DNA of 64,000 nt from a virus (lineage: Duplodnaviria > Caudoviricetes). The position numbers were made by a program, and so were the translations under genes. Every line of letters begins with the position of its first letter. The first letter of the stretch is position 1. Below, piece after piece: positions 23,063 to 63,656 of the stretch. Below the pieces are notes generated by a model. The model ran no database searches and had not been told where the DNA came from. It was given only the letters and a program-made list of their open reading frames with translations. The stretch spans positions 128,001 through 192,000 of the IMG/VR virus record IMGVR_UViG_3300033076_001145. One strand, given 5' to 3'.

Positions 23063-23345
23063 TAGCTGAGGCGGGGGTCGAACCCGCACGGGCGTTATGC
23101 CCACAAGATTTTCTTACCACTATAGTTTTCACTACCCTTTCGGTTTGTAGTCTGGACTATACCTTAACCATATCATTTCTGATTTAGGTTCTCCGTGTCT
23201 AGTCTCTACACCTTCCCTTTCGGGCTTGGCTCGGGGTTCCCAGATTAAAGGGTTCACCGAATTTACGGAGTTCTACTTAAAGAGTTTCCTCTTTAGCACT
23301 CAAATAGTTAAAGTCTTGCATGTATACCTATTTCATCACTCAGCC
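23063..23345 (-). tRNA. trnL-UAA: tRNA-Leu(TAA) interrupted by a group I intron
   Basis: Exons 23345-23311 and 23112-23063 join to CAAGA-CT-T^AA-AA-TCTTG; long variable arm; GGTTCGA T-loop. Confidence 0.9.
23113..23310 (-). ncRNA. Group I intron (trnL(UAA)/IC3-like), 198 nt, no ORF
   Basis: P AAATTCGGTGAA, Q AACCCCGAGCCAA, R GGTGTAGAGACTAG, S AAGGTATAGTCC; follows U, ends in G. Confidence 0.88.
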
Positions 23346-32767: not shown

Positions 32768-33799
32768 TTATTTAATAATTCTTGTGGTATAAACCTTACC
32801 TGAGTCATCGGTCATAACAATTACATATGAACCATTACTCAATAGATTACCATCAATCTGAATTTGTTTTTGGTTGAAGTTCTGACTAAACACAACCTTA
32901 CCATCAACTGACATAATCTTTACATTAGTATTATTAGATGGCGCAGAAATGTTAATTACCTCACCGATTGGATTTGGCCAAACCTTAATGTTGTTGGTCA
33001 ATACCTCAACACCTGTTGTATAATCAGGCACAATATTCAAAGTATATTCTGACATAATTCCACCAGGGAACCATCCTGTTGAGTCAATTGTGAATGTCAA
33101 ACAAGAGTCAGTCATACATCCATTAGGTGAAAAAGCATACAAACAAGGTGTATATGTCCCAGGTGAATCGTAGATAAATGATGTATATAACGATAGGCTA
33201 TCTACACCGCTCGCCAATCCCCAGTCCCATCCCCAGAAATTTGCGCCAGTCGTTTCACAAACAACATAGATTGTGTTTGGTTCAGATACCAATGAGTCAG
33301 GAACAAAATACATACTGATTGTTGGTGGGGTGTTCAATACTCCATCGCAGTTATTATCAACACCATCACAAGCCTCGAGAGCACCGGGGTAGGTAAATGG
33401 GTCATAATCGTTACAGTCATTACCTCCAGATTCAATTGATAGGTATCCATCATCATCCATATCATCAAAAATAGGCATTACAATATCAAATGTGGTAACC
33501 GCACCAGGTGTTACAATACCACCGATACATTGTGCCGTTCCCTGACAATCAATCGCACATATTGAAACATATACATCGGTACTATCAATAGGTGGCGCCG
33601 AAGCAATCCAAACCCCATTTGGACTATAAGAAAACATCAAAGGTCCTGTCCAAGTACTATCATCCAATGAGTAATCCCCAACTACGGTAACCGGACAATT
33701 TGGATTTTCACCAACAACATAAACATTGATTGGGAATTGAGAGAACACATTAAGTGTTAGAATGCTCAATAGAGCAAAAAGAAAAGTTTTTAATTTCAT
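32768..33799 (-). CDS. Paralog of 24860-25873: secreted protein with T9SS type A CTD
   Basis: Near-identical signal peptide; DCNDYDPFTYPGALEACDGVDNNCDG; VWPNPI...TTRIIK. Confidence 0.8.
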   Translation of the reverse strand: MKLKTFLFALLSILTLNVFSQFPINVYVVGENPNCPVTVVGDYSLDDSTWTGPLMFSYSPNGVWIASAPPIDSTDVYVSICAIDCQGTAQCIGGIVTPGAVTTFDIVMPIFDDMDDDGYLSIESGGNDCNDYDPFTYPGALEACDGVDNNCDGVLNTPPTISMYFVPDSLVSEPNTIYVVCETTGANFWGWDWGLASGVDSLSLYTSFIYDSPGTYTPCLYAFSPNGCMTDSCLTFTIDSTGWFPGGIMSEYTLNIVPDYTTGVEVLTNNIKVWPNPIGEVINISAPSNNTNVKIMSVDGKVVFSQNFNQKQIQIDGNLLSNGSYVIVMTDDSGKVYTTRIIK

Positions 33800-34351: not shown

Positions 34352-34546
34352 AACAAACCATCTACGCTAACCGTAGTTGTAGATTTTACTGATGGTTGGT
34401 TCCCCATCACCTGTTATGTGTGCACCATAGAGCAGGGTCCATCACAGTATACCTTGGGTCATTTTACACTTCATTTGTGGTAGCTACTCCACGGTGAAGC
34501 CAAGGTCTCTTTCAACGGTGCTAATCCGTCTTCTGTAAGGTTTGTT
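34352..34546 (-). ncRNA. Candidate ~195-nt structured RNA
   Basis: Terminal helix AACAAACC/GGTTTGTT, several internal hairpins; lies between tRNA-Tyr and a terminator. Confidence 0.55.
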
Positions 34547-35950: not shown

Positions 35951-38141
35951 GTAGTCAGGACAGGATTCGAACCTGTACGTTCAATGTGGCAGACTATCCT
36001 ACCTGCGACCTGTACACTGAATTAAACAGTGACACATTGAACTCACTTAGCGTCTACCAAAATTACTCATTGACCCCGTAATGGATTCGAACCACATTTA
36101 GTAATTTCCCACTTGAACGGGGTTGAAGTAATTATTCCGCCACCTGACTATTTGTTTTAATAATGATATTTTATTGTTGTTTTTAAACAACCATCAACAA
36201 CTTTAGTTGTAATTAAATGAATTACACATTTACCATTAACTTTCATTCTTCCAATTACTTCTTGAGCAATATCAAAAGGTAATGTTAAATACATATCTTC
36301 TGATTTTTGGTTAATAAATGTTTTCATACTTTTATTTTTTAGTTTAGTAGTCAGGACAGGAATTGAACCTGTAAGTAATGGAAGTTCCTCAACCTCTCCC
36401 TAAGTTCAGTGTCTTTGTGCCCTGCCCTTTGTTTTATACTTTGGCTACCATTCCGCCACCTGACTATGTTACCAGTCTTTCCTGGTCGTCACCTTGCTCC
36501 GCAGGTATGAACCCGCATTGCCCTTGGTTGGGTCTATTTGGAAAAGTCACGGTCGGCTCTGTTTCCAAATCATTTTTGTGGTTGACGGCTCAATCCGACA
36601 CGACCGATTACTCCCACATTCGTACTCAGAGAAGGACTTGAACCTTCATGTCATTTCTGACTCGGTAAATTACCTTAGCGTCTTTCCATCGGGTTTAATG
36701 CATTTCACCTCGCTTCCGCCACCTGAGCATCTTTATTTTCTAACATATTCCATCATCTCTCTCATTTTGGAAATCAATAGTTCCATTTCATCTACATTGA
36801 GGTACATACGAGAACTTTCTGAACCATCCAACTCTTTTGTTTCAACGATAATTCCATTATACGTCTCCGTTGGGTATACCTCAACTTCTTGTTCTTCTGT
36901 TGATATTGTTACTTTGTGCCAAACTTTATTCTTCATGCTATAAAATATTAAATTGTTTAAGTTCAATTACTATACCGATTATGGATATCAAGAATAAGGA
37001 TACCTTTATCATACTATCAGTGAAGGTATTGTTTGACCATCTAAAACACATCCATAGTGTGAAGATGATACAGTAAATTGTGAATATGTGTCCTAATAAT
37101 TCCATTATTGTAATTTTTTAATTATTTCAACAAATATATGGATATTTTTCTACCTTACCAAATTTATTTTTAAAAATCTAACATATTCAATTGTAATTTT
37201 GCAATCAAAGTATCTTCTTCGGGTCTTGAGTCCAACCCTAATGAGATACTTCTTCCGTGACAAGAACAAGTTGGGTTACCATCTTTGTTTACACCGAAGG
37301 ATATGAATCCAGCACTAATAGGTTTCCAATCACTGAAATCTGAATGTTGTATCATTTCAGGAAACACGATGATTTCTCTATTTCGTGTTATGATGTATTT
37401 TTGTTTTAAGTCCATACGACAAAGATAATACTAATTTTTTAAATAGACAATTTTTTTTGTAGTCAGGACAGGACTCGAACCTGTATGAGGTAACTGTTGT
37501 GACTTCATGATGCGGAGCAGTGTTATTTCCTTACGCTTACTCTATTACTCACTCGCAATTCGCTATGCCAATTTGCCACCTGACTATTTTTATATTTTAA
37601 TCTTTAATCAATGCTTTGATTAGTTGGGTCGCTATCATCATCACTATTACGGAGAAAAATATTTCCCTCCGTCATAACCACCCAAATCACAATCAATGTA
37701 AAAACAATAAGTCCTATCATAATATCAATTTTAATTTATTTTTATAGTCAGGACAGGATTCGAACCTGTAACAGAGTATTCTTAGTTGCGAACAACGACT
37801 TTCTCCTTTCTGACATTGTAAGCCTTATACCAATGATATCAATAGCGTCTACCATTCCGCCACCTGACTATTTTGTTTTTACAATAAATAATGCCGTATT
37901 AACATACCTAATATGAATGATAATATCGTCATTAAAATAAACATTGTTTTAGATATTTCCTTATGTTTCATATTTCTAATTTTAGTAGTCAGGACAGGAA
38001 TCGAACCTGTATAGGTGTCAGTCATAAACTGATTGCTTCTACTGTTATAGAGTTCTTTTGCTCCACCGAACCTAAACATCTTACGTTCACTACCTCACCA
38101 GGTTTCCGATGTTACGTCTAACCAATTCCGCTACCTGACTA
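35951..38141 (-). repeat. tRNA-scaffold elements, cluster 1 (6 copies)
   Basis: 35951-36150, 36347-36466, 36622-36728 (variant), 37459-37586, 37744-37870, 37985-38141; AGTCAGG-TGGCGGAAT...ACAGGTTCGAATCCTGT-CCTGACT with unrelated middles. Confidence 0.85.
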
Positions 38142-38374
38142 TTTTGTTAAAACTTAAATGGGTCCCAACTAGCAATACTCCATTCAACCATTAGTTCTTT
38201 TCTAACCTGTTTTTTCTTTTTTCTCGGCAAGTTACTAGACTCTCGGTATTTCTTAATAATCTTTTCCTTCCATATTTTACTTGTGTTTGAAAAGGTGTGC
38301 ATTTCGTTAATTGCCATTTGGTAAAATAACTCACCACCTCTACCGAATAAACTATCCATAATTTTTATTTTTTA

Positions 38375-38914
38375 TTAATCATTAAAAAGATTTACTAAAT
38401 AACTAAACATTTCATAATAAGGATGTGTGTTACTATCATCCCAACCCATATTTACGATAAAGTCATCATTCTCCTTCTTATACTTCTCAAACATATGACC
38501 ACCTGTCATTTTTGAGTATTGGACATTGGCAATACGGTCACACAACTTAACGAACACCGCTCCGTGAGTATTTCTGATACCTTCATAATACTTGTCGTTC
38601 GCTCTTTCCTTACGGTTCTTACCTTTCTCGTTGGTAAGTGCGTAGATGATATCAGCGGCAACTATACCTAATTCTTCCTTTACATCGTTGTAAGATACAC
38701 GAGTATCCTCAATCAAATCGTGACCCCATGCTCCAAGTAAGATATCCTCACCTGTCAATCCTGTTCCGTCATTACAAATATCAACAACCAAACTTCCAAA
38801 TTGTTTTGCAACATTCACAACCATTCTCAAATGAAACTCATAGGGAAGATATGTGTCGTACATATGATTTGTACTCTTATGTTGTTCTAATACCCAATTA
38901 ATCTTGTTTTCCAT
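38375..38914 (-). CDS. HD-domain hydrolase (RelA/SpoT hydrolase, Mesh1-like)
   Basis: PY.FHL..V, GHDLIEDT, ALT, VKLCDRIAN. Confidence 0.8.
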   Translation of the reverse strand: MENKINWVLEQHKSTNHMYDTYLPYEFHLRMVVNVAKQFGSLVVDICNDGTGLTGEDILLGAWGHDLIEDTRVSYNDVKEELGIVAADIIYALTNEKGKNRKERANDKYYEGIRNTHGAVFVKLCDRIANVQYSKMTGGHMFEKYKKENDDFIVNMGWDDSNTHPYYEMFSYLVNLFND

Positions 38915-38926
38915 AGGACAAAGATA

Positions 38927-39295
38927 CTACAATTTCTCAAAGTAAAAAAATATTGGTGACTTTTTTTCAATCAATAACCCAAAATCTTTTGCTAACCTAT
39001 AATTGGGGGTGTCCCTTTCCAATCTGTCAAGTGATGTCTCAACAACCTTTCTAAACATTTCAAGAGAATAGGTTGATTTCCACTTATTACATCTAGCACA
39101 AGATGGATTTAAGTTTTCAATGTCGTGGGAACCTTTATTAAGACCAGCTCGTTTGGCTTCACTTTCAGTTAAAGTATGCCAATGTGGTTCAATGTGGTCC
39201 ACTTGCATTTCTTTGTAGGTAATCTCCTTACCACAATAAGCACAATGTCCCTCACACTTTTGATAAACTTGTTCCCTGATTTCTTTTTTCATCAA
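38927..39295 (-). CDS. HNH endonuclease
   Basis: HCAYCG, MQVDHI, NLNPSCARCN. Confidence 0.85.
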   Translation of the reverse strand: MMKKEIREQVYQKCEGHCAYCGKEITYKEMQVDHIEPHWHTLTESEAKRAGLNKGSHDIENLNPSCARCNKWKSTYSLEMFRKVVETSLDRLERDTPNYRLAKDFGLLIEKKSPIFFYFEKL

Positions 39296-40018
39296 TTAGA
39301 TATCCAACACTCTTTTCTTGTAATAGTCATCAAAACCATCTAACATTTCGGTGATTGTCTTAGTGTCATCTCTTTTGATTACCTCATCAATCAATCCAAA
39401 CTCTTTTGCTTCGTCTGAGTTATACCATCTGTCACGAGTGGAGAATTCTAATACCTCATCAAATGTTTTTCCACAGTTCTCGGCCAACATTTTAAATAAA
39501 ATGTAGTTATACTTCTCACCTTCCATTTGGTCAATACGAGTATCTTGGATATTACCATGAGTTCCATGACTTACTTGGTGGGTCATAACCTTTGAATAGA
39601 CAAGTGACGACCTCTTACCTTTGGTCCCTGAAGATAATAATACCGAACCCATTGAAGCGCACATCCCGATATTGGTTGTTACAACATCTGATTTAATGTA
39701 GTTCATTAAATCAACAATACCAAGTCCGCACAACACCGAACCACCAGGTGAGTTAATATATAAAGTAATGTCTTTTTGTTCAACAGAATCCAAAAACAAC
39801 ATTTGAGCTTGGACAATATCTGACATTCGTTGATTAACCGCCCCTGACACCCATAAGATACGCTCTCTCATCAACCTCGAGAAGATATCAATCTGTGTTG
39901 CTCTCATTTCTCTTTCCTCCAACACATATGGTGTTAATGAGTTTTCAAACGCATCAAGGTTCATAGATGAGATACCCTCACTTAATGCAAACTTTCTAAA
40001 TTCTTTTCCGTAATTCAT
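39296..40018 (-). CDS. clpP: ATP-dependent Clp protease proteolytic subunit
   Basis: DIFSRL..ERI, YINSPGG, CASMGS, MTHQ, RDRW, FGLIDEV. Confidence 0.95.
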   Translation of the reverse strand: MNYGKEFRKFALSEGISSMNLDAFENSLTPYVLEEREMRATQIDIFSRLMRERILWVSGAVNQRMSDIVQAQMLFLDSVEQKDITLYINSPGGSVLCGLGIVDLMNYIKSDVVTTNIGMCASMGSVLLSSGTKGKRSSLVYSKVMTHQVSHGTHGNIQDTRIDQMEGEKYNYILFKMLAENCGKTFDEVLEFSTRDRWYNSDEAKEFGLIDEVIKRDDTKTITEMLDGFDDYYKKRVLDI

Positions 40019-40443
40019 TTTTTATTTTAATTGTTTTATACCTCTACAAGTCTCTCTGTGATTAGTCGTGTCCCAAAGTTTGGGATTAACCATATGACAG
40101 GTATGTTTTCTACCTGTTCTTTCAACAAATTCTCGTAATTTTTTATTATGGTTGTTTTCAACCTTCCAAGGACATTCCTTACAACAAGACATAGTTTAAG
40201 ACTCTTGGGTTAGTAATCTGTTGTATCTATTTTCATCAATCGCAATTCTCATTCTTGACTCGGTTGAACGGTATAAATCCGAACCAACACCACCTAATTG
40301 TTTCTCATACATATTAAGGTAATTTCTAACTAACTTACGACAAGCAATGTCTTGCATTGGGTGAGTACAAGAATCAATTACACTTATAACCCACAACATA
40401 GTTTCATACCATCCATTCATAGTTTTATGTATTAAAAAGTTTG

Positions 40444-40519
40444 TGAAGAAGACGGGAATCGAACCTCGTGGCACAAGGGATTTCTGTCCCTCTGCTCTAC
40501 CGACTGAGCTACTTCTTCA
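40444..40519 (-). tRNA. Atypical tRNA (Phe-like, irregular anticodon loop)
   Basis: Good acceptor, D and T arms; GAGGGA-CAGAAA-TCCCTT gives a non-7-nt loop. Confidence 0.55.
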
Positions 40520-40583
40520 TTTAAAAAGGTAAGTCCGACTTCCCTATCCGTGTGGTGTTTCACGAGTCGGACTTGTTTTTGTT

Positions 40584-41057
40584 AGATTCACCAATATAGT
40601 ATTTCCTCGGATATGTCCCAAGAGATTGGGACCATAGTAACCGTCCACCGAGGACCTATACTCTCACACTCCGTCCTGTCCCTACTCACTTAATCAAATT
40701 AGTCATAAGCTTCTCGGTCGAGGCGTTCAGTGTTACCCTCAAGACATCTTCACCCTACCACCATAGTTACTTGGTTAGCCTCACTCGGAAGATGAGTGTG
40801 TATCGTAAGATTGTCTAGTTTTCTTACGACTTGTGGATTTCAACACGACTACTTAAAGCCCCTAACCCTTTTAATCCATAACGAGGGTATCTAATTCATT
40901 GTTCCCTATCATACTTGGTTGAACTTCCCCAAACCAATTAACACCGATTAAGTAGTGCTATATGTATTTCACGTTCTGTGTAGCCTCCCCCATAGCCTTG
41001 GAGCCTTCAAGCCAGGTTCACACTGTCCAACCGCAGATAAACGGTATTGTGGGGTCT
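40584..41057 (-). ncRNA. Candidate ~475-nt structured RNA
   Basis: No ORF, raised GC, terminal helix and nested long hairpins. Confidence 0.6.
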
Positions 41058-41697
41058 TCTTTACAAATTAGATTACTCCGACTTCGGACATTGCTTCATC
41101 AGCATATTCCATGATGATGTCAGATTCAACTAATTCAGTCGCTTCAGTGAAAACTTCTCTCAATTTGTCCTCATCAACGTAAGTGTTAATTTCACGACCA
41201 TCAACATCAAAAGATACTACTTCATCTGAATCAAGGTTTGAGAATGCTTCGTCAAAGATAAACTGATTAACTTTGTTGGTGTATTCAATCAAGAAGTCCT
41301 CAAGTTGTTGTCTTGTGAAGACAATTTCACCTTCCTCAACACCAGCGTCGGATTTAACTTCATTTAATTGTGATTGGATTTCGTTAATACGCTCAATCAA
41401 TTCGTTGTTTTGTTTTTTGTTTTTCTTACTCATAATATTCATTTTTGGTGTTTTCATTTCTTTTACAAATATACAACGAATTTTTTACTTGGACAAGGTG
41501 TAGATGTTATTTTCATCTAAAATAATTTCACCCTTATCACCAATCTGAATACCCAAACCTTCCATAACAATTTGGAAATTTGTTTCACTCATAACATTAG
41601 CCTTAACTAATTTTTTGTATCCTAAAATAAAATCCATCAATTCAGGTTCAGAAATAAATCCTTTTTCAATAACTGGTATCATAGTTTAAAATTTTTG

Positions 41698-41769
41698 AGG
41701 TCGGAGTTGGATTCGAACCAACGTAAGAGCTTTTGCAGAGCTCCACTTAAACCACTCAGACATCCGACC
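41698..41769 (-). tRNA. tRNA-Cys(GCA)
   Basis: GAGCT-CT-GCA-AA-AGCTC; U73. Confidence 0.9.
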
Positions 41770-41838
41770 TTGTTTGTGAATACAAATATATAACATATAT
41801 CTATTCAAAATCAAATTTTTTTCTTAATATTTACTATT

Positions 41839-42498
41839 ATGGATATTGAATTTTTTTTAAAACAGTTTTTAGAACATAATTCTGAAATAGAATGTGATAA
41901 TGGACTTAAATTAGTATGGAATGGCGAATTTGAGACCACAAAATATAAAGATAATGAATATGAAATTCCAGTCTATAAAGTATCTAATCCTAACAATTCA
42001 CCTTACACAAGGAGCGCCTTAGAATATTATGTTGAGAGTTCCCTTTACACATTTAGAAAAATGTTACCTATATTGGAAAACTCTATACCTAGCGTATTTT
42101 TATATATAGTAGATTCTTTAGATTTCTACATATCCCCTAAAACTGAAATGAGATTAACAAAATGTTTAGGTTCAATTAGTATTGAGGATGAGTCGTTTTC
42201 TATTGATGGTCAGAATGTTGTAATTTCAGGTAGTTTCACCGGTGATTATGAAATGGATTTAGATGATGTAACAGTAATTTGTATTTGCGATTTTCAAATT
42301 GATTCCGTAACCGTTGACGGAGAAGACATCTACTACGACGAGGACGAATTTGATAGAATAAAAGACGAAATATATGACTATGATTCTGATTGGTTTGACA
42401 TCCCCACTTGGGGTTGTTTATCACAATTATATAACTCAAATAATTTTGTCAGCAAAGATGACATGGGGTGGAACACAGGTGTTCGTCTTATTATCTAA
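41839..42498 (+). CDS. Acidic hypothetical protein
   Basis: 219-aa ORF. Confidence 0.6.
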   Translation: MDIEFFLKQFLEHNSEIECDNGLKLVWNGEFETTKYKDNEYEIPVYKVSNPNNSPYTRSALEYYVESSLYTFRKMLPILENSIPSVFLYIVDSLDFYISPKTEMRLTKCLGSISIEDESFSIDGQNVVISGSFTGDYEMDLDDVTVICICDFQIDSVTVDGEDIYYDEDEFDRIKDEIYDYDSDWFDIPTWGCLSQLYNSNNFVSKDDMGWNTGVRLII

Positions 42499-44065
42499 TT
42501 AAAACAATGTGTCCTTTTTGGATGTGATTGAATCCTTTATCATCCTTATATGTCATAATCCAATTATAAACTCCATTTGGACAATAATATCCCGAACCAT
42601 CAGTTCCGTTCCAAGTTTGAGTAATTGATTTAATTTCATAAATAATCATCCCGTCTTTATTGAAGATTTTCATATTTGGTTCATATAAAGATTCCCCAAC
42701 AATTTTAAATGCATCATTATGTCCATCTCCATTTGGTGTGAATGATATTGGAACAAACAATCTATGACAAGCCTCAACATCAATTCTTAAAAACCCAACC
42801 TCACTCTTACAACCAATGGTGTCAGTTCCATAAACATCAATAACATGACTCATTGTCGAATCATACCAATTCTGATACAACTCAAAATCAGTGTCCGATT
42901 GTAACTCCCCATCAACATGCCAAGTGTATTCAACCCCAACTTCATCATTAGCATAATAGAATTGCTCAGGAGAATTTTGACATAAATCAATATTCAATAA
43001 TGTTGTGTTTATTATTGGAGCTGTATATAATTCTCTAACAAATACTTCAACTGAATCTGCAACAGGACATCCATGAATATTGACAAAATATGTTGGGTAA
43101 TATGTTCCGGGTTCAAACGCTGTGAACACATCCCCAACCAAATTCTCACCCGACCAAAATCCACCTGATGGAATTGCAACCAATTGTGTTGTATCACCCA
43201 AACAAATTCCAGTTCTTGGTTGATTAAAAACTATTAATGTGTCCGAAACATTGATTGTGGTATCTACCACATCTCCGATACATCCATCAACAGTTGTTTC
43301 AATAACCGATATAACATAATCACCCGGTACTCCACCCCAATCAATATTAATAATATTTGTTCCATCTTCAGTTAATGTTCCACCACCTGAAAGGTTCCAA
43401 TCATATGTTGAGCCAGGAGTATTCACAACAGAATATGTATCAGATAATCCAACACATACCGTATCCATCGGAACATCAATGGGTGAAGTATCAACATCTC
43501 CTCCAACAACCGTTCCATTGAATACTTGGAATGGTCCGTCGAAACATGCCTCGTTTCCCCAACTTCCCATCGTTCCATCCGCATATGGCGTAACCTCAAT
43601 TAATAAAGATAAGGGGTCACATTCATCCGTTACTTGTAATAACACACAAAATGTCCATTGGCAATTCGTTCCAAAGTCACCCCAATCATTCCCAGGATTC
43701 CCATCAATAGGTCCTGTCGGTCCCTCATAAAAATAACCCGGTCCAACAGTTAAAGTTCCTGAATTGTTAGTAACACTTTCCATCCATAACCATCCTTGTG
43801 GTGGTGTCGCACCTCCACAATCATCAGGTCCTGATATAGGTGTATAAGATACCCAACCAGGTCCCAAGTTAATACTGAAACCTTCAAGCCAATTAGCCCC
43901 AAAACCTGTATCCCAACCATTCAAAGTGTAACACATAGTTACAACAGTTCCTGGTTCGTAATTACCATTAACAGGGGCAGGATTTAATGTGAAAGATGGA
44001 ACCCCAGCACATTGTGCAAGTATAAGATTGGGGATTAACAATAGGAGGAATAGGATTTGTCTCAT
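42491..44065 (-). CDS. Secreted Ig-like repeat protein with T9SS type B (gliding-motility-associated) CTD
   Basis: Signal peptide; LFVPISFTPNGDGHNDAF...IFNKDG...WNG...GVYNW...KGHIVLIR. Confidence 0.85.
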   Translation of the reverse strand: MRQILFLLLLIPNLILAQCAGVPSFTLNPAPVNGNYEPGTVVTMCYTLNGWDTGFGANWLEGFSINLGPGWVSYTPISGPDDCGGATPPQGWLWMESVTNNSGTLTVGPGYFYEGPTGPIDGNPGNDWGDFGTNCQWTFCVLLQVTDECDPLSLLIEVTPYADGTMGSWGNEACFDGPFQVFNGTVVGGDVDTSPIDVPMDTVCVGLSDTYSVVNTPGSTYDWNLSGGGTLTEDGTNIINIDWGGVPGDYVISVIETTVDGCIGDVVDTTINVSDTLIVFNQPRTGICLGDTTQLVAIPSGGFWSGENLVGDVFTAFEPGTYYPTYFVNIHGCPVADSVEVFVRELYTAPIINTTLLNIDLCQNSPEQFYYANDEVGVEYTWHVDGELQSDTDFELYQNWYDSTMSHVIDVYGTDTIGCKSEVGFLRIDVEACHRLFVPISFTPNGDGHNDAFKIVGESLYEPNMKIFNKDGMIIYEIKSITQTWNGTDGSGYYCPNGVYNWIMTYKDDKGFNHIQKGHIVLIR

Positions 44066-44109
44066 GCTGATAAATATCTGATAAGACATATTGGAAAAAT
44101 AAATAGTTG

Positions 44110-44182
44110 TACCCCCGGAGAGACTCGAACTCCCACGTCTCTAAATCCGTATTTTAGTGTTTTTCCATTAAACTACAGGGGC
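44110..44182 (-). tRNA. tRNA-Arg(ACG)
   Basis: CTAAA-AT-ACG-GA-TTTAG. Confidence 0.8.
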
Positions 44183-44188
44183 AAAAAG

Positions 44189-44276
44189 CGGAGAGCGGTG
44201 GAATCGAACCACGCACAACTTAATGAGATACTGTTTAGCAAACAGTCGGGGACACCATTTCCCTCCTTCACTCTCC
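44189..44276 (-). tRNA. tRNA-Ser(GCT)
   Basis: ACTGT-TT-GCT-AA-ACAGT; long variable region; G73. Confidence 0.85.
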
Positions 44277-44278
44277 AA

Positions 44279-44356
44279 TGGTGTGTCTAGCGGGATTCGA
44301 ACCCGCGATGACCTGAGCCACAATCAGGCGACTTAAACCTCTTGTCAATAGACACC
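44279..44356 (-). tRNA. tRNA-His(GTG)
   Basis: CCTGA-TT-GTG-GC-TCAGG; G-1; encoded CCA. Confidence 0.88.
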
Positions 44357-44832
44357 GTGTAGTAGTCAGGACAGGATTCGAACCTGTAAAATAACATTAA
44401 TACCTGCACTTTGGAACAGCGGCATGGATAACCAAGAACTGTCTGTTTAATGTTAAGTGTCTAACCACTTTCACCACCTGACTATGTTTTTTATTTTACA
44501 AAAATTTCAGTTAATGGTAAAGAAGCAAATTTATACCCGTAAACTTCATTAGGTAGTGTTCCATCTAAACACTCAACAATATAGTTTGGAATTAAACCAG
44601 TTGAACTTTTACCTACAATTTTTCCTTCAAAATGAGTCTCACCAATTCTAACATTCACTAATGTTCCATCAGTTAAATCCTGTGATTTTACAATTTCTTC
44701 AAATGTTTTATTCATAATTTTTATTTTTTTTTGCAGTCAGAACAGGATTCGAACCTGTAAATTAGAAACCCTCTTCTAATTCCAAACCTCCGTGAATGGA
44801 GCGTTTACCAATTACGCCACCTGACTATATTT

Positions 44833-44922
44833 GAGGATGAGAAGTCCTCTGTGTTGTGAGCATACCGCATAATGCTTGTTCATACCCCATACATTAACTT
44901 CCTTTCTCAAAGGAACAACACA
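44833..44922 (-). ncRNA. Repeated structured RNA family B (kissing-loop), copy 1
   Basis: TGTGTTG-TTCC(TTGAGAAA)GGAA...CAACACA-GAGGA(CTTCTCA)TCCTC. Confidence 0.7.
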
Positions 44923-45362
44923 TTTGTAGTCAGGACAGGATTCGAACCTGACCCTCAAGTATCCGTCTTTACCGTTAGGAATTACCCCACTGACTCGCGT
45001 AAAACCATTTTACTACCTGACTGTATGTGGGCTACCCTCCTTTCGTCGCAACCGCCCACCCGTTGTGATTTCAGATTGTAGTCAGGACAGGATTCGAACC
45101 TGTATGAACTTGCTCCGCATGGCTAGGACTAGGGTTCACTATCTAATATCCATTTATAGCTGGCGTCTACCAATTCCGCCACCTGACTATATTCGTGGTA
45201 AGTCACGACCTACATATCCCTGACATTTAGCTAGCATTTCAGCTCAGGTATTTGTTACACTGTATTTGAAGTCAGGACAGGATTCGAACCTGTATAAACC
45301 AGTTGTTGCTGATTGCTTCCCCATTGATTACGTCTAACCAATTCCGCCACCTGACTATATTT

Positions 45363-45446
45363 GAGGATGAGAAGTCCTCTATGTTGTGAGACTCGAACAC
45401 TTAGTCTCAGTTCTTTCTAATATTCCTTTCTCAAGGGAACAACACA
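45363..45446 (-). ncRNA. Family B, copy 2
   Basis: Same conserved blocks, different internal hairpin. Confidence 0.7.
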
Positions 45447-45759
45447 ATATTTTATTGTCAAACATTTGGGGTGAAACGCTCTGCCGCCTCCTTGTAGATA
45501 GACATTTGAGTCATCATCAAGTGAGCATAAACATTACCACCAACTATATCATTAACCATTTTACATTTCTCTCTAACAATACCTTCTGTACGGACAATAC
45601 CTTGTGGTCCATCTTCTTTCATTTCTCTAACCGCTTGAGCCAATTCCAAGTCAGTCATATCAGAGAATACTTTTGTTACTGTGTTTTCCATAGTTTGTTA
45701 TTTTGATTTGACAAATCTACGGCAAAAATCCTATCAAACAAAATTTATTTTAAGAAAAG

Positions 45760-45837
45760 TACCCCCTGAGAGACTCGAACTCTCACCCTAAGACATCGTT
45801 CTAAGCGATGCGCGTCTGCCTATTCCGCCAAGGGGGT
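45760..45837 (-). tRNA. tRNA-Leu(TAG)
   Basis: CATCG-CT-TAG-AA-CGATG. Confidence 0.88.
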
Positions 45838-45844
45838 AAATAAG

Positions 45845-45931
45845 CGGAAGACGTAGGACTCGAACCTACACATCAGTTTCCCGATACCGGTTTTCAAGAC
45901 CGGGGCGATACCAATTACGCTTTAGCCTTCC
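45845..45931 (-). tRNA. tRNA-Ser(TGA)
   Basis: CCGGT-CT-TGA-AA-ACCGG; long variable arm. Confidence 0.9.
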
Positions 45932-47162
45932 AAGTTCCCCACCCTGAGATTCCAAGTGAGTAGTCATATCGGTTTTTCTCTTTCCAAAAACCTGCTGGGC
46001 ATCCCCGTTGAAAAAAGTCACACTACGTAGGAGGAGTTGTGCTGTCTCCTTTATCCCCACGATGTCCCACTCGCGCCGTAGACATTCTGCGGAATCATTC
46101 TTTAGGTCTTGATTCGAAGACCGTTGAGTATCTCTTACTCATTATCGTTATAAATCCATTGATTGATGTGTTGGGTCACTATCATCATCTTTTTTTCTTA
46201 AAAAATGTTACCTTCCGTTATTATCACCCACGTACCCAATAATATAAACAATAGAATCCCAATCATACTTTTTGTTTTTAAAAATTTGCAGTCAGGACAG
46301 GATTCGAACCTGTTATAAGAGAGGTCACTTACCGCTGATGGGACATATACCATCACCCTCTGTACTGCCGTACCACGTTGCGTCTACCATTCCGCCACCT
46401 GACTATGGTGGAGGGATTGCTTTTTTTATAGAAGAGCTCGCCCACCTCAGAACTTCTTTTGTAGTCAGGACAGGGTTCGAACCTGTAATTTGAATATAGA
46501 GGATATAGTTTTCATACTAGTTCTATAACATGATACTCCATTTAATCGTCTACCATTCCGCCACCTGACTATTTTGTATGTTATGGAGGGTTACCCATAA
46601 AGTTTACTAACACCCTACTTTCGTTTGTCCTGTTAGTACCACTCGGCCTCTCGTAGCCACTACTTCATACATTTTGTAGTCAGGACAGGATTCGAACCTG
46701 TAATACTCCGAAGAGCTTTCTCATATAGGCTATTTCACTATACTTTTGATATCGTATATCCAATTCCGATACCTGACTATTTAGTGTTATTATTGAGTTT
46801 ACTCCCTTATAAATTATAAGTGTTTGCAACCACCTATAGCATTCCTCATTTATTCCGTTCTTAGCTGTGAGTCTAATAACATTTGTAGTCAGGACAGGAT
46901 TTGAACCTGCAATCTCTCCCACATACTGTAAGAGCGCATTACCAATTAGCCACCTGACTATATTCGGGACGGGATTAAGCATCTCCCATATGTCCCTACT
47001 TTTTTCCTATCGTTTGAGTTTTGGGTTTAGGTCTGAAAACTCCTTCGGTAAGGAAAAAGACCGCAGTTTCTGGAAACTTACAAAACCCCAACCTTGCACC
47101 CTTTGTTACTTTAACGTCTCAACAATAGCTCTCACTTGGACGAGTGTCAAAAAAGACGGCTT

Positions 47163-47313
47163 GCTGAATAAAAAGGATTTGAACCTTAATCCTGTGTCCC
47201 CTTTCACCGTCCTCATGCGGACTGTCGTTACTCCGTTCTACTGTGCTCCTTTACACCATATTCAATCGGTAGTTTCGAACCTACCAGGTACCAAGTTAAT
47301 TACTCTTGGACTT
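47163..47313 (-). ncRNA. Family C, copy 2
   Basis: Homologous to 34828-34978. Confidence 0.7.
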
Positions 47314-47413
47314 TGTAGTCAGAACAGGATTCGAACCTATACGTTAGCTTTACATTTCGTTGACTAACCGCACCTTGAAGCGAGCGTCTTCCATTCCGCC
47401 ACCTGACTATGCC

Positions 47414-47489
47414 GAGGATGAGAAGTCCTCTGTGTTGTGTCATAACTGGATGACCTACCAACTAATTCCTTTCTCAAGGGAACAACACA
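47414..47489 (-). ncRNA. Family B, copy 3
   Basis: Same conserved blocks. Confidence 0.7.
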
Positions 47490-47775
47490 ATATTGTTGAT
47501 AGTGTTGGGATACCCGTCTCGTCCCAATCTTAACAGCTTTGTTGAAGTTTTACAAGGCCTTGGCTGAGGGTGGTGATTCCCGATTCCACTCTGGATTGTC
47601 GACATCCGTTAAGTGGGGAAATCCACTATCAAATATTTTTAAAGTTACTCAACCCCTCACGTCCTTTTACTCTTGGGGTTAAAGGTCTTGCGGACCACCA
47701 TAACGGGTTTATCATACTAGGAAGACGCTCAGTATATAAACCTTGCACCTCTCTGAAGTAACTATTTAATTATCT

Positions 47776-47800
47776 GTTTCAAAGAACTTCTACAAATGTA
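47776..47800 (-). promoter_or_regulatory. TAnnTTTG promoter element followed by boxA-like GTTCTTTGAAAC
   Basis: + strand caaatgta 47793-47800 and gtttcaaagaac 47776-47787. Confidence 0.6.
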
Positions 47801-47931
47801 TGGTGTTTTTTTCAATTCACCAAATTTTATTTGTTAATTTTTGAAGTGTGATTTAATCTTCATCCAAACTATGTCGGGGTAATTAAAAACCCACCAAAAA
47901 AACCAATATATCTTTTTCATAATTTTAATTT

Positions 47932-48020
47932 GTGGATACATTGGGACTCGAACCCAAACCAACCAACGGGGCCATCAGTCATACGGTTACCCCAAATTTC
48001 CACCTTCCATAAGTGTACCC
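47932..48020 (-). ncRNA. tRNA-like element, different scaffold
   Basis: GGGTACA/TGTATCC acceptor + TTGGGTTCGAGTCCCAA T-arm; no canonical anticodon arm. Confidence 0.5.
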
Positions 48021-48165
48021 ATATTTGTAGTCAGGACAGGATTCGAACCTGTGATAGTCTCCATCAGCACATTGATTAAAGCAGAGACTCCGTTGTTTGA
48101 GGTTCATGGCGGAACCTATTTCAATGTTTCGGTGCGTGTTTCCATCTCGCCACCTGACTATATTT

Positions 48166-48252
48166 GACCACTGGTGGGATTCGAACCCCAAAGACCTTAC
48201 GTATCGGTCACCCTCCTGTTCGTCCTATCCTGTAGTAACTTTCAACAGTGGT
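48166..48252 (-). ncRNA. tRNA-like element, different scaffold
   Basis: ACCACTG/CAGTGGT acceptor + GGGTTCGAATCCC T-arm. Confidence 0.5.
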
Positions 48253-49442
48253 TTTTAATCAATAGGGGGATTACGAATCCCTAGAACAGGTACTCCTATT
48301 GAAGTTTTTGTAGTCAGGACAGGATTTGATACCTGTATAATTTCATCTCAAGTCTAAGACTCGGAATTACTGTAACTGCCCAGCGCCTGACTATATTAAC
48401 TATGAGAGCACGTTGTTCTTCGCATCTCTTTGGTATTTCCCGTGGTTAGTTAGACCAGATAGAGCGTTTCCCTATCAGAAGTTCCATATAGGTAATCAAC
48501 CTACTTCTCATCGTATTGGACATACTATCTGATGATTAGTCAGAACGTGTAGTCAGGAGAGGATTCGAACCCCCAACGATGCAACCTTTTTATCGGATGT
48601 GATGCCGTTTCCACATTACGCATTACCTGACTAATTATTTTACAAATATACTAATTTTATTTCATAATCCCCTTCCCTTTCAGTTAAAAACTTTTTTGCC
48701 TCGTCAATGGTTGGGTGGGCTCTATACGGAAACCTTGGTAGTAATCCACTTTTTGGTCCGTATATATGAACAGATTTACTACAACTAAAAGTTACAATTT
48801 TTTCTTTATTTGTCATATCTTATCCATTTTTTACCTCTTCATCCCATTCTGATATAACAAACTTTAAATCCATCCATCCACCTTCTTCATCTTCTCTATA
48901 TTCAGCTAGAAATCCACCAGTTGATACGGTTGTCTTTTCCTCAATCGCCATTTTCAAAAGTCGTCTTGCTTCACTTCTTAATTCATATTTTTCAGGAACC
49001 TCAAGACTACCATTCCTATTTGCCCATTTCCAATCAAGGAATACCATTACCTTATGAACTTGGTCAAAGTCAAAGCTATCCATTATGTTGTCAAGAGCGT
49101 CTTGTTGTTTTGGTGTCATATTCTTATCGTTTTGTGATTACAAATATATGGCAAGATTTCTATCAGTCCAAATATTATTTTGATTTTTCTTCAGATACAG
49201 TATCAATAATGGTCCATATTGTAAAAGTTAATCCAGCGACTACCCACAACCAATGTCTGAAACCCCAATGCCAACTTGGACCGTGAGTATCATGAGAATA
49301 TAAACATCCTTCTCTAATCACATTATTATTGATGTATTCAACTTTACCACCATTACATTGCCAATCACCAAATAATTCGTGAGCATATTCTGGTACAAAT
49401 GACATACAGAATATGACGGCAAACATTATTAAAATTTTTAAT

Positions 49443-53230: not shown

Positions 53231-53315
53231 CACGCCAGGAAGGATTCGAACCCTCATAGAACATAATAGTTCACGGTTTTGGAGACCGTTGCCTAAACCA
53301 TTCGGCCACTGACGT
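53231..53315 (-). tRNA. tRNA-Trp(CCA) with long variable arm
   Basis: ACGGT-CT-CCA-AA-ACCGT; extra arm GAAC-TATTAT-GTTC. Confidence 0.85.
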
Positions 53316-54036
53316 GTATTATTTTTTCAATTATTTTATCAATATTGTTTTTAACTTCGTAATCGCTAAATCTTAAAATCTTCCACCCCATTTGGGATAA
53401 AATTCTATCTCTTTCAATATCAATTTTTTTAACATTTTTTAAATTATGTGTAGAACCATCAATCTCAATGTTAATTTTTAAATCAACGAATGCGAAATCT
53501 AATGAATATCTTAAAATTGGGTATTCCTGCGTCCACCCATCAATACCATTCTTAATTAACGACTCTCTAAATAACCTTTCAGGATAACTTTCTTTTGATG
53601 AGTGATTTAATAAGTAAGGTATTTTACCTGGATTTTCATCTAAGTATTTTTTCCTAGATTTTGATATTTTCAATTTCTGTTCATCACTCATTTTCCTACC
53701 CTTTCCGATTTTAGATAATTTTTCTTTCCTGTCGTTTAATTTAGGATTTAAATAACAATTAACCTTATGACCTCCGAGAGACCTTCCATCATCATATTCA
53801 ACACCACAAAAACTACAGATATGTTTTTTAATCACTTTATTTTTAATTTCAAGTGATTTAGTTCTTGGTTTTCGTTTATGAACTGACAGATGACCTTTTA
53901 ATTTTGAGATATTCTCAAATGGTCCCTTACCACATTCGTGACAATAAAAATCACCAACATTATGAACACTCATATGTCCAGATAATTGATTTGGTTTTTC
54001 AAATTCTTTTTCGCAGATATTACATTTATACTCCAT
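53293..54036 (-). CDS. C2H2-type Zn-finger repeats + DUF559/Vsr-like endonuclease (probable homing endonuclease) inside the tRNA operon
   Basis: CNIC..H..H repeats; MSDEQKLKIS NUMOD3-like; YSLDFA, IEIDG..H, RD..L...GWKILRF. Confidence 0.8.
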   Translation of the reverse strand: MEYKCNICEKEFEKPNQLSGHMSVHNVGDFYCHECGKGPFENISKLKGHLSVHKRKPRTKSLEIKNKVIKKHICSFCGVEYDDGRSLGGHKVNCYLNPKLNDRKEKLSKIGKGRKMSDEQKLKISKSRKKYLDENPGKIPYLLNHSSKESYPERLFRESLIKNGIDGWTQEYPILRYSLDFAFVDLKINIEIDGSTHNLKNVKKIDIERDRILSQMGWKILRFSDYEVKNNIDKIIEKIIHVSGRMV

Positions 54037-54087
54037 AATTATAAATATTTCGTAGGTCATTTTTTTAAACCACCTAACTAAAAAAAG

Positions 54088-54175
54088 TGACCCCGGTGGG
54101 ACTCGAACCCACAACGGCTATACAGCTTCCCTACTGATTAAAAGTCAGTTGCGCTACCAATTGCGCCACGAGGTC
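54088..54175 (-). tRNA. tRNA-Lys(TTT) with long variable region
   Basis: ACTGA-CT-TTT-AA-TCAGT; ~20-nt variable region containing GCT-GTAT-AGC. Confidence 0.85.
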
Positions 54176-62821: not shown

Positions 62822-63656
62822 ATAAACGAAGCCTGAGATTACAGCTTTGATTGAGAACCTTTGGAAGGATTATTGTTTCCCTTCGTATCCACTTCCTTTT
62901 GAGAAGTATTTCTCAGTGACGGTCTTTTAAGTTTACCACTCTTTGAGGTTTGAATTACTCTATCAGTACTCAACTCTTTCCGAGGTTGCCACCCCAGTTC
63001 GTCCTTGCGGGATTAAAGGTCTTTCGTAACAATACACATTGACTTGGGGTCTTTGTGTGCAATGAACGGCTCATTACTATGTAGTCACCTTTCACTCAAA
63101 CCTGATGGACACTTTTCCTTAATGTATTTTAATTAATTGGATAATTTAAATTCCATTTAGTTTTGTGTCGTAGATGTGTCAGAGTAGTGGTCCACCGTAA
63201 GCTCCGTTTCCTTTTGAGAAACGAAATACTAAACTACTCCGTGAAGTGTCCCCACCTCCATATTCCAAGATTACTTCATAAAGAGACCTTGGTAGGTCTG
63301 ACTTTAGGGGTAGTAGCGACACCACTCGTTCTCCACCTTACCTTTCGGTTTTAAGTCCTCTATCATATTGGGACCCGCAATAGTGTGATTGGATAATCAC
63401 ATTTCTTACAGAGTTCCTATGGGTTATTCTTATTACTCTTCCGAGTTCAACCTGACAATCTACTTTGCCAGGTCACCCTACCATTTTCCCTACGAAGTTA
63501 TCCTCGGTACCGAAGGTTTGGTGATATCCCACTTGTGTACTTGAGTTCAATTTCCCTTACGGGATTTCAAACCGCAGTCTCCTCAACACGGGGGAGACCA
63601 CTTTATCCTACTTTCGTAGTTTATTTAAGGACCATACACGGCCCATTATCGTTTAT
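62822..63656 (-). ncRNA. Candidate giant (~835 nt) structured RNA, GOLLD-like in size and context
   Basis: No credible ORF; terminal helix ATAAACGA/TCGTTTAT; many GNRA-capped hairpins on the minus strand; promoters and boxA upstream, terminator downstream. Confidence 0.7.

Follow-up and report, generated by a model that had tools for sequence, protein, structure and literature searches.

In the genome of a large lake phage, 19 genes encode RNAs with tRNA-type ends around unrelated folded middles, and this locus raises the question of what these RNAs are and why one frame should hold so many different inserts. The answer is developed here from the window, i.e., the whole stretch of DNA analysed (64 kb), which is part of a 208.6-kb genome.

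Elements of the array

A script search for AGTCAGG...CCTGACT recovered 18 elements between 35953 and 48632, every one on the minus strand, and none in the rest of the 208.6-kb genome. These elements, here called shells, share the acceptor stem and the T arm, and measure 73–197 nt (positions 1–72); a variant shell is the 19th element. The pattern of the 5′ arm matched 12 times and that of the 3′ arm 16 times in the 64-kb window, with 0 matches of either in 100 shuffles. The original prediction of about 19 minus-strand tRNA-scaffold elements with constant acceptor and T arms was therefore borne out. The features are the following, where cargo denotes the middle of a shell and L numbers are loci of related phages.

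35953..36149 (−), shell, 197 nt, two independent cargo modules (D loop and the place of the anticodon/variable arm); the D-loop module is found with other middles in L150, L068 and L131
36349..36465 (−), shell, 117 nt, purine-rich cargo (pattern script); the cargo is also free-standing, without shell, in L009, L233 and L229
36624..36728 (−), variant shell, different acceptor stem and T arm
37461..37585 (−), shell, 125 nt, cargo also in L075 and L244
37746..37869 (−), shell, 124 nt (pattern script and fold)
37987..38140 (−), shell, 154 nt, cargo partly common to L020
44364..44483 (−), shell, 120 nt (pattern script and fold)
44735..44826 (−), shell, 92 nt; ARAGORN takes it wrongly for tRNA-Pro
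44833..44922 (−), second scaffold family, copy 1, variable middle in a kissing-loop frame, immediately 5′ of a shell
44928..45022 (−), shell, 95 nt, non-Leu D region (pattern script)
45080..45188 (−), shell, 109 nt (pattern script)
45270..45356 (−), shell, 87 nt, cargo also in L243
45363..45446 (−), second scaffold family, copy 2
46290..46404 (−), shell, 115 nt, GNRA-loop cargo hairpin with a compensatory change
46463..46570 (−), shell, 108 nt, cargo also in L029 and L382
46678..46778 (−), shell, 101 nt (pattern script)
46887..46959 (−), shell, 73 nt, miscalled tRNA-Tyr by ARAGORN; long stem, short loop, no 7-nt anticodon loop
47317..47408 (−), shell, 92 nt, cargo also in L010 and L420
47414..47489 (−), second scaffold family, copy 3
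48029..48159 (−), shell, 131 nt, cargo also in shells with another, compensated acceptor/T stem (L082, L234, L235)
48312..48392 (−), shell, 81 nt, altered T loop, without Leu D arm
48551..48632 (−), shell, 82 nt, at the head of the array, with a promoter element 10 nt upstream

The promoter element, of the Bacteroidota type TAnnTTTG, lies at 48650-48643; such elements are upstream of only a minority of shells. The position of the variant shell is conserved in an ortholog of close relatives, in contrast to the mobile copies, and a D-loop insert is present both in this variant and in shell 35953..36149.

tRNA likeness and processing signals

The family collection comprises 635 distinct copies from freshwater phages; the phages that carry shells probably infect Bacteroidota. 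Like canonical tRNAs, shells have an acceptor stem of 7 bp, a T arm, a discriminator and a C at position 74, and the T loop is kept in 97% of copies and U8 in 98%. Nevertheless, a canonical anticodon arm (5-bp stem and 7-nt Y32-U33-R37 loop, in register) is present in only 2 of 635 copies, which speaks against the proposal that decoys of anticodon nucleases are their general role; as had been predicted for this arm, 0 of the 17 window copies tested passed a cloverleaf test, versus 466 of 567 control tRNAs. On the other hand, the Leu-like D arm is not constant as claimed, since the GG-N-AGA D loop occurs in 318/635 family members and in 8/17 window copies. ARAGORN was expected to return pseudo or undetermined calls, and it did so once (47315-47408), but it also called Pro-CGG at 44733-44826 and Tyr-GTA at 46885-46959; these calls, as well as the Rfam tRNA scores of 31–44 bits on six window shells, are false. 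Across the family 99 of 561 shells were called tRNA by ARAGORN, with scattered anticodons that include Pyl and Sec; therefore such calls should be filtered out before tRNAs are listed, or recoding is claimed, for these phages.

The flanks at −1/−2 and 73–76 have the profile of true tRNAs: T at −1 (87% of shells versus 67% of true tRNAs), A at −2 (74% versus 63%), C74 (98% versus 97%) and A76 (77% versus 73%). This signature makes it likely that shells are matured by the host tRNA machinery. Pair-preserving changes also confirm the expected covariation of the constant arms. When copies were found via the 5′ arm alone, the acceptor was still paired in 109 of 110 closing strands, with G-U where it is changed; compensated acceptor pairs number 6 in 174 unbiased copies and 14 in 641. 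There were 6 double and 51 wobble changes in the acceptor stem, and 56 double and 43 wobble in the T stem, an asymmetry that depends on the mismatch caps chosen and is only suggestive of a separate inheritance of the arms. Strand orientation is uniform within each of the 185/185 multi-copy loci.

Structure and exchange of the cargo

The middles are about 5 to 150 nt long and form 403 clusters among 599, with a Chao1 estimate of about 1,090. In energy-only folds, cargo pairs showed 37 double and 24 wobble changes versus 26 breaks, counts that, like those of the shell stems, are not independent of phylogeny. One cargo helix has double changes at 6 of its 9 pairs with 100% paired cells, and its covariation score was reached by 0 of 500 shuffles; a second cargo family shows the same pattern, and cargo loops are invariant beside compensatory stem changes. 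Some cargo occurs free-standing or in other shells. In the window and ten shell-rich loci no Rfam family was detected for shells or cargo, apart from partial tRNA scores. Likewise, 13 middles had no match in 401 Bacteroidota genomes, where matches were confined to shell arms or AT-rich gene starts, and middles were absent from GenBank phages and, homologous RNA modules excepted, from 2.7 Mb of related phage DNA outside shells. Across the middles, no k-mer dominates as a shared motif beyond D-arm remnants. A hammerhead reading of the cargo at 48029 was discarded, given that inspection by eye revealed a wrong stem order. Because there are at least 403 types, with compensatory changes, without Rfam or host match and in part shell-free, the middles are best regarded, from these comparisons, as selected structured RNAs and not as introns, guides or junk. 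Taken together, the middles are only a little more stably folded than their shuffled versions (median z −0.26, with 9% below −2); given this weak signal, some may be unselected or decaying.

The constant ends of the shell are swap points across hundreds of related phages, with more than 400 different inserts. Several upstream partners were found for 27 of 31 middle clusters and several downstream partners for 29 of 31; there is hardly any linkage among the upstream flank, the middle and the downstream flank. Near-identical middles share neither flank in 18 of 30 pairs versus 15 of 137 for the tRNA controls; the true tRNAs of the region also change neighbours, less often than shells. In 174 of 216 pairs, homology stops at 10 nt or less from the 5′ end of the shell; for the 3′ end this holds in 149 of 216. 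At the same site, 39 pairs have a different middle and 27 do not, and six or more different middles were seen at one site; both arms were present in 227 of the 250 comparisons of the same site, and no consistent target duplication was seen at the two empty sites that are clean. Where related phages differ by an insertion, deletion or replacement, the breakpoints are marked by the shell repeat; shell copy number in these phages ranges from 0 to 18, and collapsed, one-armed and fused copies are seen. The gaps between shells are filled by small ORFs and RNAs. Members of the second scaffold family end a few nt before a shell in 44/78 cases, and many of the remaining ones end before a tRNA. The original prediction had missed the role of the arms as recombination junctions, through which middles and flanking modules are shuffled independently.

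The search for partner enzymes found no TROVE, RtcB, reverse transcriptase, integrase, RecA or CCA enzyme in the phage's own genome, which is 71% complete. Reverse transcriptase was found in 0 of 26 genomes (0 of 11 near-complete ones), and a retroelement or retron-like identity was discarded. An integrase above the cut-off occurs in 2 of 26 genomes, and of 80 integrase relatives only 1 is adjacent to an array; the integrase immediately upstream of the array in G408 is thus unlinked and was rejected as a dedicated enzyme, as was an integron or site-specific cassette array with a linked tyrosine recombinase. TROVE is present in 8/26 genomes, shell-less ones included, and in 4/11 near-complete carriers. 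The shell family is thus not associated with a gene for reverse transcriptase, integrase or Ro60, and no partner or effector protein linked to shells was found. There were no shell carriers among GenBank phages, whose best 3′-arm match was the canonical tRNA-Gln of Enterococcus phages; a GTDB search gave 17 matches, all in metagenome-assembled genomes and probably mis-binned phage contigs. In the literature searched, no account of the family was found.

The closest known systems are T5 RNA1 for the architecture and the PeSL cassettes of T4-type phages for the shuffling. T5 RNA1 and RNA2 are labelled 'tRNA-like stable RNA with unknown functions' in GenBank (AY543070.1). In the fold of RNA1, the acceptor stem, a D arm of the Leu type and the T arm surround unrelated hairpins that replace the anticodon arm; this RNA lies in a tRNA cluster among stable RNAs and small ORFs, as do the co-oriented shells; the likeness is limited in that the Leu-type D arm is intact in about half of the shells. 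However, the T5 RNAs are single copies with their own ends and cargo without sequence homology to shell cargo, whereas a genome can have as many as 18 copies of one shell frame, among which more than 400 cargo types are exchanged across phages. Species 1 and species 2 of T4 (rnaC, rnaD) are also stable RNAs of a tRNA cluster, and species 1 has a terminal T arm, but they are single-copy, lack an in-register Leu D arm and have no cargo exchange shown. PeSLs are short functional motifs, repeated in hyperplastic regions, through which modules are shuffled by recombination (Arbiol et al. 2010, PMC2839356), as they are through the shell arms. Unlike shells, PeSLs are promoter–terminator stem-loop units that shuffle ORFs; the shell repeat consists of two split tRNA arms, and both the inner RNA and the outer modules are shuffled.

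YrlA (RF02553) and tmRNA (RF00023) likewise combine a tRNA-mimic domain with a second functional one. The tRNA-like domain of YrlA has a circular permutation and the RNA is bound by Ro60, and tmRNA requires G3-U70 and a tag ORF. Neither model matched any shell, weak RF02553 matches being found only across tandem true tRNAs; there was neither a permuted domain nor a Ro60/TROVE partner tied to shells, G3-U70 occurs in 0 of 635 copies, and mini-ORFs are present at 10.4% versus 9.9% in shuffles. Both identities were rejected. In engineered tRNA scaffolds of the Ponchon and Dardel type, the cargo in the anticodon region is reportedly matured and protected by the host tRNA machinery; these are laboratory tools, of which shells would be the natural, diversified counterpart. 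The D arm is of the tRNA-Leu type, although shells lack the anticodon arm, whereas the acceptor and the T arm are almost the same as those of tRNA-Gln(UUG) of Enterococcus phage EFDG1 and close to the 3′ half of Bacteroidota host tRNA-Arg(CCU). This combination suggests a chimeric origin of the frame, a resemblance to be taken as a lead.

Explanations and implications

The explanation that we favour, with a probability of about 0.6, is that a natural tRNA scaffold serves both for the maturation and stability of cargo RNAs and as a connector for recombination; the outcome would be a shuffled library of RNAs that may act as aptamers or decoys. Each shell gene would encode a stable non-coding RNA in which the top half of a tRNA (acceptor, T arm and often a Leu-type D arm) frames structured cargo. 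The host RNase P, 3′ trimming and CCA enzymes would cut the transcript of the tRNA cluster at the tRNA-like ends, and the cargo would be released and protected as in the laboratory scaffolds. The comparison of phages shows that crossovers in the arms exchange middles, and independently the small ORFs and RNAs between elements, because the arms, both inside one phage and from phage to phage, are near-identical direct repeats of 25–30 bp. The most likely route is general recombination, homologous or by annealing, and the result is a shuffled library with hundreds of cargo types. The weakest step is the last, in which the cargo could be the selected payload, an aptamer or decoy that binds proteins of the host or of competitor phages during infection, and an arms race would keep the pool diverse. 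A broader version stays tentative, with the odds somewhat against it: a phage-wide combinatorial library of RNA effectors, the RNA counterpart of an integron, in which the tRNA frame expresses and exchanges about 1,000 aptamer-like RNAs, each of them against another defence or regulatory protein of the host, and in which the kissing-loop frame adds a second set of variable cargo.

The tRNA body itself could be the effector, an elbow/acceptor mimic that may be leucylated and would titrate synthetases, RelA, EF-Tu or toxins that act on tRNA, with the middle being secondary. The conservation of the T loop and U8 agrees with this, and the bacterial leucine identity set (A73, A15-U48, G18G19, A20a and T loop; PMC9976931) is complete in 252/635 copies and in 6/17 window copies, for example in shell 46463..46570 but not in 48551..48632, which has none of it; however, it is missing in 60%, anticodon loops are absent, the covarying cargo exists without shell, and a dose effect would need just one or two copies and leaves 400 cargo types unexplained, which makes this reading unlikely. 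Similarly improbable is that shells are mostly neutral or selfish repeats whose arms are recombination hot spots that collect RNA fragments, the tRNA fold being kept only to spare the processing of the tRNA operon. Their variable copy number, the degenerate copies and the weak overall folding are in line with it, but not the compensatory changes with invariant loops, nor the same cargo being kept in different frames.

The original prediction also offered processing punctuation, in which shells are RNase P and 3′-processing sites that free neighbouring non-coding RNAs and small-ORF messages from long transcripts. The placement of the second scaffold family before shells or tRNAs and the contents of the gaps fit this, yet it does not need structured, conserved middles and ordinary tRNAs do the same job at equivalent sites; as the sole function it is rather improbable, and it could accompany the scaffold-and-connector explanation as a secondary function. 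Repeats that are constant around exchangeable, hypervariable inserts recall a CRISPR-like or TIGR-like guide or antisense system whose middles would be spacers addressing host or phage nucleic acid. This reading is largely refuted and very improbable, considering the failed target searches, the wide range of insert lengths, the covariation of inserts as stems and a linked effector protein not being found. Least probable by far are intron-containing tRNA genes or TA-duplicating miniature transposons, which the tRNA-like ends and the 8-bp terminal inverted repeat with TA at both ends could evoke: the geometry for rejoining an anticodon arm occurs in 1.8% of copies versus 1.6% of shuffles, Rfam detects a real group I intron in the window but none in the middles, the flanking T and A-C are those of true tRNAs, and the occupied and empty sites do not reveal a consistent duplication. 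A MITE of the IS630/mariner type, with TA duplication and clean empty sites, was likewise rejected. As a whole, the original prediction is partly supported, its ideas of a tRNA-like scaffold that displays variable RNA and of signals for tRNA-type processing being the parts that were upheld.

The oddities represented by T4 species 1 and by RNA1 and RNA2 of T5 are now joined by hundreds of natural variants with a fixed frame, and therefore frame and cargo can be separated by swapping. In these elements, RNA-processing signals would double as recombination connectors. Bacteroidota-type lake phages hold a large uncatalogued set of small structured RNAs, with more than 400 types seen and about 1,000 estimated, and the cargo RNAs of the shells are candidate RNA anti-defence factors or natural aptamers.

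The shell array and its genomic setting

The window belongs to a viral record of 208.6 kb (71% complete), of which it covers bases 128001-192000. Two neighbouring proteins carry C-terminal domains of the type IX secretion system (T9SS), which suggests that phage proteins may be exported via the T9SS of the host; together with the TAnnTTTG promoter elements upstream of genes, these domains lead us to infer a host within the Bacteroidota. About 25 true tRNAs are clustered on the minus strand of this region, together with GOLLD and freshwater-1 RNAs, clpP and small ORFs.

Features of the window
23064-23345 (-), tRNA-Leu(UAA)-like gene with a group I intron at 23131-23321 (Rfam RF00028, 54 bits)
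34384-34446 (-), freshwater-1 RNA, flanking the tRNA cluster
38375-38914 (-), HD-motif protein within the shell array (by eye, no Pfam match)
38927-39295 (-), HNH nuclease within the shell array
39296-40018 (-), ClpP protease within the shell array
42491-44089 and 32768-33799 (-), phage proteins with T9SS signals (CHU_C, Por_Secre_tail; domain match)
62830-63241 (-), GOLLD RNA (326 bits), flanking the tRNA cluster

As originally predicted, there are 18 shells, i.e., tRNA-like elements with constant ends around a variable middle, plus one variant (36624-36728) that differs in its acceptor stem and T arm. All lie between 35953 and 48632, measure 73-197 nt, and have no counterpart in the rest of the genome record; the arm patterns gave 12 and 16 matches, and 0 in every shuffle. 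A canonical anticodon arm is absent from all window shells tested, in agreement with the prediction. The acceptor stem and T arm are constant, as had been claimed, whereas the supposedly constant Leu-type D arm occurs in about half of the copies. ARAGORN, proposed as a check, and Rfam returned some shells as tRNAs, calls that were judged erroneous.

Other elements were seen nearby. Three more tRNA-like elements, which have T loops and different acceptor stems, at about 47165-47266, 47935-48020 and 48165-48255 (-), were spotted by eye and not recovered by a strict scan. The shell 5' heptamer also occurs in three similar repeats (27198, 30971 and 31644, minus strand), followed by non-shell sequence, where small paralogous ORFs form a block. 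A long stretch free of ORFs (about 40520-41060, minus strand), upstream of the clpP region, is 70-90% conserved in relatives, and between tRNA-Lys and tRNA-Trp an ORF with zinc-finger and DUF559 endonuclease-like regions (53293-54114, minus strand) is probably a homing-type nuclease.

Pattern and neighbour searches recovered 784 shells (635 distinct) in 384 loci. Among 26 large records the number of shells ranged from 0 to 11, the window with 18 being the richest seen, and no carrier was found among cultured phages in the GenBank set. The shell family is real, widespread and uncatalogued.

Selection on the frame and its cargo

Copies found by the 5' arm alone have the 3' arm in 110 of 116 cases, and in 109 of these 110 the acceptor stem stays paired, with G-U where altered. 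Changes in the T stem are compensated, fully compensated acceptor pairs are also present, and the same cargo was found in frames with other, paired acceptors. These sequence comparisons show that the tRNA-like frame is under pairing selection. At the positions beyond the mature RNA (-1 T, -2 A, C74 and A76) the base profile is the same as in the true tRNAs of these phages, which suggests that the shell ends are cleaved by RNase P and trimmed at the 3' side with CCA repair.

The 599 middles form 403 clusters, and the Chao1 estimator puts the total near 1,090; they have no match to Rfam families, and short ORFs are not in excess among them. When middles of one cluster were compared, stems predicted from energy only showed 37 double and 24 wobble changes versus 26 breaks. 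One cargo family has a 9-bp helix with double changes at 6 pairs and 0 broken cells, and its covariation exceeds that of 500/500 shuffles and all slid controls; a second family shows like covariation and invariant single-stranded tracts. In families with enough members, the covariation shows the middles to be selected structured RNAs. The cargo of shell 36349-36465 was also found without a shell; there a plain helix closes it.

A second scaffold, with a closing helix, two hairpins and a hypervariable middle, has three copies in the window.

Copies of the second scaffold
44833-44922 (-)
45363-45446 (-)
47414-47489 (-)

The complementary loops of its hairpins predict a kissing loop. It has 101 matches in IMG/VR (78 distinct) and none in Rfam; in 44 of the 78 it stops a few nucleotides short of a shell, and otherwise often of a tRNA.

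Independent exchange at the arms

Linkage among upstream flank, middle and downstream flank is nearly absent. In pair counts that are not phylogenetically independent, near-identical middles had neither flank in common in 18 of 30 pairs, versus 15 of 137 for true tRNAs of the same loci; of 216 pairs of copies with the same middle, 174 lost homology no more than 10 nt from the 5' end and 149 no more than 10 nt from the 3' end, whereas in tRNA controls homology continued for more than 50 nt in half or more; and where both flanks were homologous, the middle differed in 39 pairs and agreed in 27. One site held at least six different middles. Gains and losses involve whole units (middle, 3' arm, outer module of small ORFs or RNAs, and 5' arm), and D-loop inserts move independently of the middles, indicating a third crossover point. 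Relatives that have a middle in common with a shell of the window almost never share a flank with it. Within the window, a small ORF is repeated after two 3' arms, and the kissing-loop scaffold is repeated before three 5' arms. By these comparisons, exchange at the arms is shown to be independent. A shell from another viral contig (L036:13032-13101, minus strand) contains the complete canonical D and anticodon arms of tRNA-Lys(UUU) (Rfam 66 bits); it is possibly a captured tRNA, as expected if true tRNAs are captured now and then.

No dedicated enzyme could be linked to the family: among 26 genomes, reverse transcriptase occurred in none, integrase in 2 and TROVE in 8, two of these without shells, and the single integrase adjoining a shell array is not representative. 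Recombination between short repeats has been documented for PeSL cassettes (PMC2839356), and ordinary recombination between 25-30-bp direct repeats would be the simplest account of the shuffling; the single orientation of all copies, seen in 185/185 loci with at least two shells, fits it. Separately, a 266-aa tyrosine recombinase in other viral contigs (L496:5841-6641, minus strand, and L502-L581) has 151 viral-contig relatives. Conservation of the sequence upstream of it starts only at a TAAC motif, past which the DNA varies, and by eye the locus resembles a phage-borne integron.

Function of the shells and related RNAs

The reading we favour, with a probability of about 0.6, is that the shell is a tRNA-like frame that matures a structured cargo and whose arms exchange independently. 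The foremost alternative, though an unlikely one, is that the frame itself is the decoy; the complete bacterial leucine identity set, defined as in PMC9976931, is present in 40% of the copies, so that charging with leucine may be possible for some shells and cannot be a general role. Next in likelihood, and likewise doubtful, is a neutral recombination hot spot: the folding signal averaged over the middles is weak, and therefore selection is not required for all of them, so some may lie outside it; nevertheless, the double changes and the unbroken helix in the cargo families argue against neutrality.

Processing punctuation has a small probability. A guide system is very improbable, given that 13 middles had no match in 401 Bacteroidota genomes. 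That the elements are introns or transposons is scarcely credible: no target-site duplication was found at shells, and the middles failed the intron test, which goes against the splicing once envisaged, in contrast to the true group I intron of the tRNA-Leu(UAA)-like gene, which had escaped both ARAGORN and the whole-window scan.

If the shell is a maturing frame, host tRNA enzymes would process its RNA, and the cargo might, more speculatively, be a protein-binding decoy or aptamer in conflict with the host. T5 RNA1 has the same architecture as the shells, and T4 species 1 has a T-arm end in common with them; the annotation of each is a stable RNA with no known function. No description of a standardised multi-copy frame with an exchanged cargo pool was found in the literature searched. 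Thus, the architecture is already known from T5 RNA1, and what appears to be new is its use as a multi-copy standard frame with exchanged cargo.
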